This document shows, piece by piece, positions 11,923-63,805 of a stretch of DNA of 64,000 nucleotides (positions within the stretch are counted from its first letter, which is position 1; every line of letters begins with the position of its first letter). The position numbers and the translations under genes were made by a program. Source of the stretch: Escherichia coli (GTDB taxonomy: Bacteria > Pseudomonadota > Gammaproteobacteria > Enterobacterales > Enterobacteriaceae). Below the pieces are notes generated by a model. The model was not told the origin of the DNA and did no database searches. It worked only from the letters and a program-made list of their open reading frames with translations. The stretch lies in NCBI RefSeq assembly GCF_003991155.1, contig NZ_CP031293.1; one strand, written 5' to 3'.

Positions 11923-13158
11923 ATGGAATTTACCACCGGATTGATGTCGCTCGACACCGCGCTTAATGAGATGCTTTCTCGCGTTACCCCACTGACCGCC
12001 CAGGAAACGCTGCCACTGGTTCAGTGTTTTGGTCGTATTCTGGCGAGCGATGTCGTTTCGCCACTGGATGTCCCGGGGTTTGATAACTCCGCTATGGACG
12101 GCTACGCGGTGCGTTTAGCCGATATTGCCTCCGGGCAACCGCTGCCCGTTGCCGGTAAATCCTTTGCCGGTCAGCCGTACCATGGTGAATGGCCTGCGGG
12201 TACCTGCATTCGTATTATGACCGGTGCGCCGGTGCCAGAAGGCTGCGAAGCGGTGGTGATGCAGGAGCAGACTGAACAAACGGACAATGGCGTGCGTTTT
12301 ACTGCTGAAGTGCGTAGCGGGCAAAATATTCGCCGTCGCGGTGAAGATATCTCTGCAGGTGCGGTTGTTTTCCCGGCGGGGACTCGCCTGACTACCGCTG
12401 AACTGCCAGTGATTGCTTCGCTAGGGATTGCCGAAGTTCCGGTGATTCGTAAAGTGCGTGTAGCGCTTTTTTCTACCGGTGATGAACTCCAGTTGCCCGG
12501 TCAGCCGCTGGGCGACGGCCAAATCTACGATACCAACCGTCTCGCCGTACACCTGATGTTAGAACAGTTGGGATGCGAGGTAATCAACTTAGGGATTATC
12601 CGCGACGATCCCCATGCCCTGCGCGCCGCATTTATTGAAGCCGACAGCCAGGCGGATGTAGTGATCAGTTCCGGCGGTGTTTCAGTGGGTGAAGCGGATT
12701 ACACCAAAACGATTCTTGAAGAGCTGGGGGAGATCGCCTTCTGGAAACTGGCGATTAAACCGGGTAAACCGTTCGCGTTCGGTAAACTTTCTAATAGTTG
12801 GTTCTGCGGCCTGCCGGGCAACCCGGTTTCAGCGACGCTGACCTTCTATCAACTGGTACAGCCTTTGCTGGCAAAACTAAGCGGCAATACCGCCATCGGC
12901 CTGCCCGCGCGCCAGCGTGTGCGCACGGCATCGCCTCTGAAGAAATCGCCAGGACGCCTTGATTTCCAGCGCGGCGTGCTGCAACGCAACGCCGATGGCG
13001 AACTGGAAGTGACGACCACCGGACATCAGGGTTCACATATATTTAGCTCCTTTAGCCTCGGCAACTGCTTTATCGTGCTGGAACGCGATCGCGGCAATGT
13101 GGAAGTGGGCGAATGGGTGGAAGTAGAACCGTTTAACGCGTTGTTCGGAGGCCTGTAA
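11923..13158 (+). CDS. moeA: Molybdopterin molybdenumtransferase MoeA
   Basis: 411-aa ORF; recognised MoeA sequence. Confidence 0.92.
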
Positions 13159-15680: not shown

Positions 15681-18113
15681 ATGACCACACTGAAACTGGA
15701 CACGCTCAGCGACCGCATTAAAGCGCACAAAAATGCGCTGGTGCATATTGTGAAACCACCAGTCTGTACCGAGCGCGCGCAGCACTATACCGAGATGTAT
15801 CAACAACATCTCGATAAGCCGATCCCGGTACGTCGCGCGCTGGCACTGGCGCATCACCTGGCGAATCGCACCATCTGGATCAAGCACGATGAGTTGATCA
15901 TCGGCAACCAGGCAAGCGAGGTTCGCGCCGCGCCGATCTTCCCGGAATATACCGTCTCGTGGATCGAAAAAGAGATTGATGATCTGGCAGATCGTCCGGG
16001 TGCTGGTTTTGCGGTGAGCGAGGAGAACAAACGTGTTCTGCATGAAGTGTGCCCGTGGTGGCGCGGTCAGACGGTACAGGATCGCTGCTACGGCATGTTT
16101 ACCGATGAGCAAAAAGGTCTGCTGGCGACCGGCATCATTAAAGCGGAGGGCAATATGACCTCCGGCGATGCGCACCTGGCGGTGAATTTCCCGCTACTGC
16201 TGGAAAAAGGGCTTGATGGTCTGCGTGAGAAAGTGGCGGAACGTCGCTCGCGCATCAATCTGACGGTACTGGAAGATCTGCACGGCGAGCAATTCCTGAA
16301 AGCGATTGATATCGTGCTGGTGGCAGTCAGTGAACACATTGAACGTTTCGCTGCCCTGGCGCGTGAAATGGCCACGACCGAAACCCGCGAAAGCCGTCGC
16401 GATGAACTGCTGGCGATGGCAGAAAACTGCGATCTTATCGCCCACCAACCGCCGCAGACTTTCTGGCAGGCGCTGCAACTGTGTTACTTCATCCAGTTGA
16501 TATTGCAGATCGAATCTAACGGTCACTCAGTATCTTTTGGTCGTATGGACCAGTATCTCTATCCATACTATCGCCGTGACGTTGAACTGAACCAGACACT
16601 GGATCGCGAACACGCCATCGAGATGCTGCATAGCTGCTGGTTGAAATTGCTGGAAGTGAACAAAATCCGCTCCGGCTCACACTCAAAAGCCTCTGCGGGA
16701 AGTCCGCTGTATCAGAACGTCACCATTGGCGGGCAAAATCTGGTTGATGGTCAACCGATGGACGCGGTAAATCCACTCTCTTATGCGATCCTCGAATCTT
16801 GCGGTCGCCTGCGTTCGACTCAGCCTAACCTCAGCGTGCGTTACCATGCGGGTATGAGTAACGATTTCCTCGACGCCTGTGTTCAGGTGATCCGCTGCGG
16901 CTTCGGGATGCCGGCGTTCAACAACGACGAAATCGTCATCCCGGAATTTATTAAACTCGGTATTGAACCGCAGGACGCTTACGACTATGCAGCGATTGGT
17001 TGTATCGAAACCGCCGTCGGTGGCAAATGGGGCTATCGCTGTACCGGCATGAGCTTTATCAACTTCGCCCGCGTGATGCTGGCGGCGCTGGAAGGCGGTC
17101 GTGATGCCACCAGCGGCAAAGTGTTCCTGCCACAAGAAAAAGCGTTGTCAGCGGGTAACTTCAACAACTTCGATGAAGTAATGGACGCATGGGATACGCA
17201 AATCCGTTACTACACGCGTAAATCAATCGAAATCGAATATGTCGTCGACACCATGCTGGAAGAGAACGTACACGATATTCTCTGCTCGGCGCTGGTGGAT
17301 GACTGTATTGAGCGAGCGAAAAGTATCAAGCAAGGCGGCGCGAAATATGACTGGGTTTCTGGCCTGCAGGTCGGCATTGCTAACCTCGGCAACAGCCTGG
17401 CGGCAGTGAAGAAACTGGTATTTGAACAGGGCGCGATTGGTCAGCAACAGCTGGCTGCCGCACTGGCGGATGACTTCGACGGCCTGACTCACGAGCAGCT
17501 GCGTCAGCGGCTGATTAACGGTGCGCCTAAGTACGGCAACGACGATGATACTGTCGATACGCTGCTGGCTCGCGCTTATCAGACCTATATCGACGAACTA
17601 AAACAGTACCATAACCCGCGCTATGGTCGTGGTCCGGTTGGCGGCAATTATTACGCGGGTACGTCATCTATCTCCGCTAACGTACCCTTTGGCGCGCAGA
17701 CGATGGCAACGCCGGACGGACGTAAAGCGCATACCCCGCTGGCAGAAGGCGCTAGTCCGGCCTCCGGTACTGACCATCTCGGCCCAACGGCGGTCATTGG
17801 CTCAGTGGGTAAACTGCCTACGGCCGCGATTCTCGGCGGCGTGCTGCTCAACCAGAAACTGAATCCAGCAACGCTGGAGAACGAATCTGACAAGCAGAAA
17901 CTGATGATCCTGCTGCGCACCTTCTTTGAAGTGCATAAAGGCTGGCATATTCAGTACAACATCGTTTCCCGCGAGACGCTGCTGGAGGCGAAAAAACATC
18001 CCGATCAGTATCGCGATCTGGTAGTGCGCGTCGCGGGCTATTCCGCCTTCTTCACCGCGCTCTCTCCAGACGCTCAGGACGATATCATCGCCCGTACTGA
18101 ACATATGCTGTAA
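15681..18113 (+). CDS. ybiW: Glycyl radical enzyme, PFL-like (PflF/YbiW), 810 aa
   Basis: Length and the C-terminal glycyl radical region (RVAGYSAFF); paired with the activase directly upstream. Confidence 0.9.
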   Translation: MTTLKLDTLSDRIKAHKNALVHIVKPPVCTERAQHYTEMYQQHLDKPIPVRRALALAHHLANRTIWIKHDELIIGNQASEVRAAPIFPEYTVSWIEKEIDDLADRPGAGFAVSEENKRVLHEVCPWWRGQTVQDRCYGMFTDEQKGLLATGIIKAEGNMTSGDAHLAVNFPLLLEKGLDGLREKVAERRSRINLTVLEDLHGEQFLKAIDIVLVAVSEHIERFAALAREMATTETRESRRDELLAMAENCDLIAHQPPQTFWQALQLCYFIQLILQIESNGHSVSFGRMDQYLYPYYRRDVELNQTLDREHAIEMLHSCWLKLLEVNKIRSGSHSKASAGSPLYQNVTIGGQNLVDGQPMDAVNPLSYAILESCGRLRSTQPNLSVRYHAGMSNDFLDACVQVIRCGFGMPAFNNDEIVIPEFIKLGIEPQDAYDYAAIGCIETAVGGKWGYRCTGMSFINFARVMLAALEGGRDATSGKVFLPQEKALSAGNFNNFDEVMDAWDTQIRYYTRKSIEIEYVVDTMLEENVHDILCSALVDDCIERAKSIKQGGAKYDWVSGLQVGIANLGNSLAAVKKLVFEQGAIGQQQLAAALADDFDGLTHEQLRQRLINGAPKYGNDDDTVDTLLARAYQTYIDELKQYHNPRYGRGPVGGNYYAGTSSISANVPFGAQTMATPDGRKAHTPLAEGASPASGTDHLGPTAVIGSVGKLPTAAILGGVLLNQKLNPATLENESDKQKLMILLRTFFEVHKGWHIQYNIVSRETLLEAKKHPDQYRDLVVRVAGYSAFFTALSPDAQDDIIARTEHML

Positions 18114-30474: not shown

Positions 30475-31152
<678 letters not shown>

Positions 31153-31190
31153 ATCCATCGCTGATGGTGCAGAACTTTAGTACACGATAA

Positions 31191-31225
31191 AAGCGGCTTC
31201 CTGACAGGAGGCCGTTTTGTTTTGT
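31191..31225 (+). terminator. dps rho-independent terminator candidate
   Basis: Imperfect hairpin cggcttcctg-ac-aggaggccg followed by ttttgtttt. Confidence 0.6.
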
Positions 31226-31383
31226 AGCCCGCCTCAACGCACTTATTTAGTGCATCCATCTGCTATCACCAGCTGGTTAAGTAAATTTTTTGTATCCACA
31301 TCATCACACAATCGTTACATAAAGATTGTTTTTTCATCAGGTTTTACGCTAAATAATCACTGTGTTGAGTGCACAATTTTAGC

Positions 31384-31412
31384 GCACCAGTTTGGTGCCC
31401 CAGAATGGTGCA
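31384..31412. promoter_or_regulatory. Tandem NtrC (NRI) enhancer-like sites upstream of glnH
   Basis: GCACCAgtttGGTGC and overlapping TGCCCCagaaTGGTGCA resemble the NtrC consensus TGCACCA-N3-TGGTGCA. Confidence 0.5.
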
Positions 31413-31485
31413 TCTTCAGGGTATTGCCCTATAAATCGTGCATCACGTTTTTGCCGCATCTCGAAAAATCAATGAGTTGCAAAAC

Positions 31486-31502
31486 TGGCACGATTTTTTC
31501 AT
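31486..31502 (+). promoter_or_regulatory. Sigma-54 promoter candidate (glnHp2): TGGCAC-N5-TTTCA
   Basis: -24 TGGCAC element with a -12-like element 5 bp downstream, about 55 bp upstream of the glnH ATG. Confidence 0.5.
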
Positions 31503-31540
31503 ATATGTGAATGTCACGCAGGGGATCGTCCCGTGGATAG

Positions 31541-32302
<762 letters not shown>

Positions 32303-48669: not shown

Positions 48670-48897
48670 AACTACTCCGAACCGCCCCGACCGTTACCGG
48701 TGTAGTTTTCAGGGAGATACTGAAAAGGAAAATGACAAAAACCACAATGTCATGAGGGAGCGGAGTGTAGCAGTTTTTGTGACGCAGCGCATAAATTATC
48801 CCTGTGACTGGCGTAGCTAAAATTCTTAGCCATACTGGACAACTCCCCTATGGAGTCATAATCTTAATCAATCATTTGATTAAGAATGGACTGTGCG

Positions 48898-60976: not shown

Positions 60977-61489
60977 TTATTTCTTCAAATGTGGATGGAA
61001 ATTACACGGACGCGTACGGGCATCCAGCTGCGGCGCAATGATATTTTCCCATGCGGTACGGCACGCTTTGGTCGAACCCGGCATGGCGAAAATCAGCGTT
61101 TTGTTAGCGACGCCCGCTACCGCACGAGATTGCAACGTGGAAGTGCCAATCTCTTCGAACGACAACATCCGGAACACTTCACCAAAACCTTCAACTTCAC
61201 GGTCGAACAACGGCAGCAGCGCTTCGGGAGCCTGATCTCCTTCCGTCAGGCCAGTCCCCCCCGTAATCAATACCACTTGTACATCGTCGCTGGCGATCCA
61301 CGCAGATACCTGAGCGCGAATAGCGTAGCGGTTTTCTTTCACAATGGCTTTATCGACAACGTGATGGCCCGCTTCTTGCGCCGAGTCGCGCAGATAGTGA
61401 CCGGAGGTATCGTCTTCTTCACCGCGACGATTAGAAACCGTAAGAATAGCAATACGGGTCGGGATAAATTCAGTGCTTACCTGACTCAT
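60977..61489 (-). CDS. moaB: Molybdenum cofactor biosynthesis protein MoaB
   Basis: 170-aa ORF, MogA/MoaB fold. Confidence 0.93.
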
Positions 61490-61510: not shown

Positions 61511-62500
61511 TTAGCCGCCAATGTACGATAAGTTTTGCGTAATACCGGTGTTGTTTTGATGCAGGAAATGGGTCTGTTTCTTCTCCCGCAGCGCCGCTGA
61601 AATACGCGCTTCCAGCGCCTGTTGCTGGGTATCGTCTTCCAGCAGATCGCGCAGGTTAACGCCGCCTTCACCAAACAGGCAGAGATGGAGTTTACCAATG
61701 GAGGAAACGCGCAGGCGGTTGCAAGTGGCGCAGAAGTCTTTTTCATACGGCATGATAAGGCCAATCTCTCCGGCGTAATCCGGATGACAAAAGACTTGCG
61801 CGGGACCGTCGCTGCGTTGACGTAATTGGTGGATCCAGCCGCGACGCAGTAACTCGTCACGCAGAACCTGACCAGAGATGTGATGCTTACGGAAGAGCTC
61901 GCTGCCCTCGCCCGTCTCCATCAGTTCGATGAAACGCAGCTGGATGGGACGATGCTGGATCCAGTTCAGAAAGGTGTCGAGCTGATGATGATTAACATCA
62001 CGCATCAGCACGGTATTGACTTTGACCTTCTCAAAACCGGCCTCAAATGCAGCATCGATTCCTGCCATGACCTGGTTGAATTTATCCTGCCCGGTAATGG
62101 CATGAAACTGGCGGGCGTCCAGACTATCAACGCTGACGTTGATGCCAGTAAGTCCAGCATCGCGCCAGTTCGCCACATCGCGTTCCAGACGGTAACCATT
62201 GGTGGTGACCGCAATCTGGCGGATAGCGTCGTTTTCTCGCACAGCGGCGATGATATCGGTAAAGTCGCGGCGTAAAGACGGCTCACCGCCCGTCAGACGG
62301 ACTTTTTCGGTGCCCAGACTGGCGAAGGCGCGCGTAACCCGGCGAATTTCATCGACGGTAAGAAAGCCTTTATTGGTGACGCCGCTCGGTTTGTAGCCAT
62401 CCGGCAGGCAGTAGGTGCAACGAAAGTTACACACATCGGTAATCGACAGGCGCAAGTAGTAAAACTTACGCGCAAATGCATCAGTCAGTTGTGAAGCCAT
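61511..62500 (-). CDS. moaA: GTP 3',8-cyclase MoaA (radical SAM), start at MASQLTDAF
   Basis: CNFRCTYC cluster motif; 329 aa. Confidence 0.93.
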
Positions 62501-62504
62501 GTAC

Positions 62505-62645
62505 ACCTTTCCAGATACGGGAGGCGAAGTCATTTCTTCCTTCGCCCTGGTGGCAATCTTTACGAGCATTGTCACGGCCAAAGCACCGTATCAGTTGACC
62601 CAGGTGCAGAGGCTAGAGTGTTTAGTGGTTAAGCCGATACTAGCG
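62505..62645 (-). ncRNA. Molybdenum cofactor (Moco) riboswitch candidate in the moaA 5' leader; ends approximate
   Basis: Established knowledge that the E. coli moaABCDE leader carries the Moco RNA motif. The leader here is about 140 nt, structured and GC-rich, and ends in a GCCUCCC segment near the RBS. Not verified with a covariance model. Confidence 0.55.
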
Positions 62646-62836
62646 TGTAAATGAGATTTTTACCATCCACACTTTCGCTATGTAATCATGTATATAGCGT
62701 CATGATCGTGCTATTTCGCTACAGAATAAGGGAAAATGGCGGTTTTACTTTGATATACATCATCAGGAAGGCATAGCGTACATCGTCCTTTAGAGGTAGA
62801 AGAAAATAGTTTGTATCCTCAATATTGGCAGGTTAA

Positions 62837-63805
<969 letters not shown>

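Follow-up and report, generated by a model that had tools for sequence, protein, structure and literature searches.

The dps–glnH intergenic region

The 408-bp spacer between dps and glnH in the window (the whole 64 kb stretch of DNA analyzed here) almost certainly contains glnHp2, the sigma-54 promoter through which nitrogen supply controls glnHPQ, the operon for a glutamine ABC transporter, together with the promoter's enhancer (Table 1). glnHp2 is already known, and from about 1990 onwards has been a model for sigma-54 promoters with NtrC and IHF. The present analysis contributes the identity with the K-12 promoter, the positions of the motifs, an architecture that is not expected by chance, and a phylogenetic footprint; binding by, and dependence on, sigma-54, NtrC and IHF are taken from the literature. 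No evidence contradicting the glnHp2 identity was met.

The window region is from E. coli, and at this locus it is 100% identical to B2-type strains, e.g. LF82 and NRG 857C, with glnH annotated (RefSeq) under the 100%-identity matches to E. coli chromosomes. The genes on the + strand run in the order ompX (itself on the − strand), rhtA, dps (30649–31152), glnH, glnP, glnQ and ybiO, which is the K-12 order with K-12 read from the opposite strand, and the promoter region lies directly 5′ of glnHPQ. The region is carried by 5421 of 5426 complete E. coli genomes. Compared to K-12 MG1655, the spacer is identical at 401 of 408 positions; two of the seven substitutions fall within the enhancer–promoter segment (T for A at 31391, in the spacer of NtrC site 1, and T for G at 31473, in the IHF spacer), both at positions that the respective consensus leaves unspecified, and the remaining five are elsewhere in the spacer. 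The element is thus the same as glnHp2 of K-12 (Claverie-Martin & Magasanik 1991; Mao et al. 2007; site OS06 of Bonocora et al. 2015), sharing the sigma-54 17-mer, both NtrC dyads at their specified positions, the core of the IHF site and the spacing to glnH, and it is flanked by the same genes. The initial annotation had recognized a glnHp2-like architecture upstream of glnH from the letters of the sequence, and had proposed a comparison with the published promoter; the comparison bears it out, as the 17-mer is that of OS06, the primer coordinates of Mao et al. fit, and the NtrC and RpoN binding peaks lie in the spacer. From this likeness we infer that the B2-type strain would behave like K-12. 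An Rfam scan of the spacer gave no match above threshold, the dps terminator having only a sub-threshold resemblance to ctRNA and STnc70.

Table 1. Coordinates of features in and around the dps–glnH spacer, and their mean identity to the window among Enterobacteriaceae.
Feature	Position	Strand	Sequence	Mean identity to window	Basis or remarks
dps terminator	31190–31218
Distal NtrC-like dyad (candidate third NtrC site)	31238–31254	+	CGCACTTATTTAGTGCA		Centre −267 from glnHp2 and about −116 from glnHp1
glnHp1, sigma-70 promoter	31290–31362	+	ttgTATCCacatcaTCACAcaa (CRP site)		Degenerate CRP site at 31290–31311 (PMC1865078); probable start near 31362
NtrC (NRI) dyad 1, upstream member of the overlapping pair	31383–31399	+	CGCACCAGTTTGGTGCC	0.82 (specified positions); 0.23 (own N3 spacer)	2 mismatches to TGCACCANNNTGGTGCA; centre 31391, −122
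NtrC (NRI) dyad 2, downstream member of the overlapping pair	31396–31412	+	TGCCCCAGAATGGTGCA	0.86 (specified positions); 0.39 (own spacer)	1 mismatch; centre 31404, −109
NtrC spacers				0.23–0.39
IHF site	31467–31479	+	AATCAATGAGTTG	0.87 (specified positions)	Consensus match, perfect to WATCAANNNNTTR; about −46 to −34, centre near −40
glnHp2, sigma-54 (−24/−12) promoter	31485–31501	+	CTGGCACGATTTTTTCA	0.93 (specified positions)	Consensus scan, PWM, ChIP-seq identity
glnHp2 +1	31513 (within about 1 nt)	+			Deduced from primer coordinates in PMC1865078
glnH, first gene of glnHPQ, periplasmic glutamine-binding protein (target of the promoter)	31556–32302	+			ORF, RefSeq and K-12 annotation
Rest of dps–glnH spacer (background)				0.41

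The sigma-54 element and the start of transcription

The TGGCAC-N5-TTTCA element that had been noticed at the outset is present at 31486–31501, with TGGCAC at 31486–31491 (GG at 31487–31488), GATTT as the N5, and TTTCA at 31497–31501; it departs from TGGCACNNNNNTTGCW at one position, and from the extended consensus YTGGCACGNNNNTTGCW likewise at one. The −24 part has the GG, and the −12 part has TC (31499–31500) rather than the canonical GC, with T replacing the G. The initial annotation had described the −12 element as non-consensus, and the departure is a rare one, glnH being the only one of 135 high-stringency E. coli sigma-54 ChIP-seq sites to be without that G (134 have G and one has T). 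Because glnHp2 is bound in vivo despite this known peculiarity, the −12 consensus is not an absolute requirement for membership of the class. A scan with an RpoN position weight matrix (PWM), proposed with the initial annotation, was done with a matrix built from 40 intergenic ChIP-seq motifs (Bonocora 2015), the two in-window sites being left out; the glnH element is the top match in the window with 16.5 bits, close to the median of 16.2 bits for real sites, and an in silico change of T to G at 31499 would lift it to 22.8 bits.

The transcription start is positioned by the coordinates of a fragment described as '−289 to +63 of glnHp2', which Mao et al. 2007 amplified with two primers (PMC1865078). 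These primers map to 31224 and 31575 and give the same +1 from either end, 43 nt upstream of the start codon of glnH; the rule of Bonocora (motif centre plus 19) puts the start at 31512, 44 nt from the ATG. With +1 at 31513 the GG is at −26/−25, and the T replacing the −12 G is at −14.

Further matches to the PWM are present elsewhere in the window. One is a second sigma-54 element, TTGGCAGGTTAATTGCT, at 62825–62841 (+), which scores 13.0 bits and lies 57 bp before the ATG at 62898 (ybhK); its sequence is that of ChIP-seq site OS05, which EcoCyc lists as predicted and not confirmed. A molybdenum cofactor (Moco) riboswitch (Rfam RF01055, 103 bits) is found nearby at 62488–62632 (−), presumably upstream of a moaA gene divergent from ybhK. 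Four other matches of 13.7–15.0 bits, at 5784–5800 (+), 12853–12869 (+), 61364–61380 (+) and 16039–16055 (−), e.g. CTGGCACCAATACTGCG, are absent from the 135 high-stringency K-12 ChIP-seq sites and are therefore probably chance matches.

The NtrC enhancer and the IHF site

The tandem NtrC-like sites are two dyads that overlap by 4 bp, on the + strand within 31383–31412 where the initial annotation had seen them, and are the only matches with two or fewer mismatches to TGCACCANNNTGGTGCA in the 64 kb, dyad 2 being the best in the window. Measured from centre to centre, they precede the sigma-54 motif by 102 and 89 bp, for which the earlier estimate of about 90 bp was fair. The region thus has at least two dyads of the TGCACC-N5-GGTGCA type roughly 70–150 bp 5′ of a sigma-54 promoter, which is the arrangement of an NtrC enhancer. 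A weaker third match, TGCACAATTTTAGCGCA at 31370–31386 with three mismatches, abuts the pair. The NtrC sites of glnHp2 described by Claverie-Martin and Magasanik in 1991 are reportedly centred at −109 and −122, and the dyad centres here agree with these positions.

Binding in this region has been seen by more than one method. NtrC ChIP-seq gives a 75-fold peak, annotated as 'direct binding', that maps to about 31442–31522 (PMC4066584), and genomic SELEX places both an 87% NtrC peak and a peak of RpoN-holoenzyme in the dps–glnH spacer at ~31421 in window coordinates (PMC8743547); the resolution of the ChIP-seq and genomic SELEX peaks is about 100 bp, at which the individual dyads are not separated.

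An IHF consensus lies between the enhancer and the promoter, inside the interval covered by the initial annotation although it was not mentioned there. Dependence of glnHp2 on an IHF-induced bend is stated in the literature (PMC2709558, citing primary work). Two further observations concern NtrC-type and IHF sequences. First, an isolated GTGCA, an NtrC-type half-site with no matching left half, is located between the enhancer and the IHF site at 31438–31442 (−75 to −71) and is about 90% conserved; by analogy with glnAp2, it might be a low-affinity site of the 'governor' type. Secondly, the window as a whole contains eight perfect IHF matches compared to 2.3 expected, a number reached in 1 of 100 shuffles, and two of them form an overlapping palindromic pair at 48866–48881.

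Conservation across Enterobacteriaceae

One glnH locus was taken from each of 80 Enterobacteriaceae species and the 420 bp upstream were aligned, giving 81 sequences including the window. The sigma-54 match in the orthologous loci was searched for at 40–100 bp from the ATG; taking the best match with no such restriction was tried and rejected, as it gave spurious far-upstream sites in six species. Several patterns emerge (Table 1). First, the positions specified by the sigma-54, IHF and NtrC consensus sequences stand well above the background, and the spacers within the NtrC dyads do not; the GCAC core of dyad 1 and the GTGC core of dyad 2 are conserved in every sequence. Secondly, TGGCA is invariant at −24, with 58 sequences having the hexamer TGGCAC and the other 23 having TGGCAT, and the element is 68–71 bp from the ATG in all of the sequences but one, in which it is 74 bp away. 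Thirdly, 80 of the 81 sequences have TTTCAT as their −12 hexamer and none has TTGCA; this family-wide conservation of a defective −12 suggests that weakness of the promoter may have been selected. Fourthly, 70 of 81 sequences keep the CAA-N4-TTG core of the IHF site at a constant −19 from TGGCAC. The form in most genera is AAACAA-N4-TTG, and at least 68 of 81 have an IHF match with one mismatch; the perfect ATCAA form, which is due to the T at 31469, is found in three of the 81, the window among them.

The 5′ leader of glnH (31513–31555) is also well conserved, with a mean identity of 0.84 over the 80 species that is above that of the NtrC sites, and is too conserved for covariation analysis. 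A hairpin in this 5′UTR is not thermodynamically distinctive (z = −0.44). The leader segment CGUGGAUAGA at 31532–31541 is complementary to nucleotides 52–61 of the sRNA MgrR, with a value of −19.2 kcal/mol in a test of the seed region that was equalled in 20 of 1000 shuffles, and both RIL-seq and TRIC-seq name glnH among the partners of MgrR (bioRxiv 10.1101/2025.09.11.675593). A reading of the GGA-rich leader as a CsrA target was also considered and set aside, the literature search having given it no support.

The upstream promoter glnHp1 and a distal dyad

The sequence of the CRP site of glnHp1, and its centre at −61.5, have been reported (PMC1865078), and from that centre we infer a +1 near 31362. 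The glnHp1 region has a mean identity of 0.68 over the 80 species compared to the background of 0.41. A scan of 31100–31600 with a simple sigma-70 consensus gave no good match, which is consistent with a weak glnHp1.

A further NtrC-like dyad is located beyond glnHp1 as seen from glnH, 20 bp downstream of the dps terminator and 145 bp upstream of the NtrC pair. It has four mismatches to the NtrC consensus in E. coli and two to three in most genera, and 69 of 81 sequences retain its GCAC-N7-GTGC pattern, with the offset from TGGCAC fixed at −247 to −250; the two cores are 0.99 and 0.97 conserved, and the spacer 0.34. No mention of this dyad was found in the literature searched, and it is the only item in the region that is possibly new.

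With a glnHp1 start at about 31362, the proximal NtrC dyads lie inside the p1 transcript, at about +22 to +51 of glnHp1. This raises the question of whether they act, in addition to their role as an enhancer, as a repressor or roadblock for glnHp1, perhaps aided by the distal dyad through looping. The p1-specific RT-PCR primer that has been published anneals at 31401–31421 (PMC1865078), such that p1 transcripts cross the NtrC sites; a conserved NtrC-like dyad is present on the other side of glnHp1, and the layouts of the glnH and glnA promoters have been described as very similar. However, no report of NtrC repression of glnHp1 was found in the literature searched, the distal dyad has the four mismatches noted above in E. 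coli and is not resolved by the binding data, and the proximal pair is in any case an established enhancer. We therefore consider a second, repressive role of the proximal dyads to be conceivable but doubtful. A related proposal is that the distal dyad is an undescribed third NtrC site, which together with the proximal pair would bracket and loop out glnHp1, or would feed the assembly of the NtrC oligomer; this seems unlikely, and we put it forward as speculation.

Activity of the sigma-54 element and the role of chance

The −12 peculiarity of glnHp2 also bears on whether the sigma-54 element is productive at all, or is instead like the many intragenic sigma-54 sites that are not, with glnHPQ driven by sigma-70 only. 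The near-invariant G is missing, the promoter is described in the literature as weak, and the occupancy of OS06 is modest, with a fold-above-threshold (FAT) of 6 in the ChIP-seq data (PMC4591121). The 17-mer CTGGCACGATTTTTTCA, however, is exactly that of OS06 at K-12 glnH, a promoter that EcoCyc classes as confirmed, and glnH is one of only five genes that are up-regulated on overexpression of sigma-54 (Bonocora 2015, PMC4591121). Transcription from glnHp2 depends on sigma-54 and phosphorylated NtrC, and its transcripts have been detected by primer extension (PMC1865078). In Salmonella with a promiscuous activator, wild-type cells express glnHPQ at a level 7.1-fold above that of an rpoN deletion strain. 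Taken with the near-constant distance of the element from the ATG in all 81 sequences, these observations make a non-productive site very improbable, and favor a weak, functional glnHp2.

The individual motifs are no commoner than expected. There are three one-mismatch sigma-54 matches in the 64 kb compared to 3.3 expected, and four NtrC matches at three mismatches compared to 3.8 expected, neither of which is above chance when taken alone; of 200 shuffles of the 64 kb, 28 (14%) contain a PWM match of at least 16.5 bits, and the sigma-54 element is thus convincing only with its context. Because single-motif counts that equal chance are uninformative, the joint architecture was tested instead, using dinucleotide-preserving shuffles and asking for a sigma-54 site with at least two NtrC sites 60–200 bp upstream and an IHF consensus between them. 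The full arrangement was found in none of 1000 shuffles, and even one NtrC site upstream of a sigma-54 site in only six of 1000. Although the single-motif counts and the PWM score would allow it, a coincidence of motifs with no regulatory role has a negligible probability given the joint test, the strong contrast between half-sites and spacers over 80 species, and the direct binding seen by ChIP-seq and genomic SELEX.

A model for glnHp2 and its relationship to other promoters

In NtrC/sigma-54 systems phosphorylated NtrC binds to an enhancer, oligomerizes, contacts the closed complex and opens the promoter by ATP hydrolysis. For glnHp2, nitrogen limitation would lead to binding of phosphorylated NtrC (NRI) dimers to the overlapping dyads at −122 and −109, followed by oligomerization, and IHF bound at about −40 would sharply bend the intervening DNA. 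The bend would allow the NtrC oligomer to meet the closed complex of sigma-54 RNA polymerase on TGGCAC-N5-TTTCA, and ATP hydrolysis by NtrC would then open the promoter, with transcription starting at ~31513. In other conditions expression would be provided by glnHp1, a weak, CRP-assisted sigma-70 promoter about 150 bp upstream. Because a T takes the place of the −12 G that is found in all other mapped sigma-54 sites of E. coli, glnHp2 would be intrinsically weak, which could account for its reported low strength and for its dependence on correctly placed NtrC and on IHF. In K-12, replacement of this T by G reportedly increases the occupancy by the closed complex and makes the promoter less dependent on IHF and on the NtrC sites.

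The closest comparison within E. coli is with glnAp2, the glutamine synthetase promoter, which is similarly the second of a tandem pair (a CRP-activated sigma-70 p1 and an NtrC-activated sigma-54 p2) with NtrC dyads about 100–140 bp upstream. There are a few differences, however. First, glnAp2 has a consensus-type −12, TTTCGCT, with GC. Secondly, it has no obvious IHF site and functions without IHF in vitro (PMC2709558). Thirdly, the strong NtrC sites of glnA overlap p1, whereas those of glnH are downstream of the p1 start. In the placement of an IHF site between enhancer and promoter, glnHp2 resembles nifH and nifU of Klebsiella pneumoniae and Pu of Pseudomonas putida, all of which require an IHF-induced bend for productive looping (PMC2709558), although these respond to the activators NifA and XylR and belong to other regulons. 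The glnH promoter of Salmonella Typhimurium (STM0830), TGGCATGATTTTTTCATT, is an orthologue that is NtrC-regulated and sigma-54-bound and has the same TTTCAT at −12; its −24 is TGGCAT and not TGGCAC, the variant found in 23 of the 81 sequences.

Implications

As a discovery these observations carry little weight, but they show that a reader given only the sequence can recognize a bacterial enhancer–promoter unit. The comparative data make a small addition, in that no other mapped E. coli sigma-54 site has the defective TTTCA at −12, which is nevertheless kept throughout nearly all of the Enterobacteriaceae sequences, and the distal dyad upstream of glnHp1 is conserved as well as the two known NtrC sites. 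If the distal dyad is indeed a third NtrC site, looping of glnHp1 could shift the operon from p1 to p2 when nitrogen is limiting and, together with the family-wide defective −12, the combination of a weak promoter and an extended enhancer would be a selected design rather than a quirk of E. coli.
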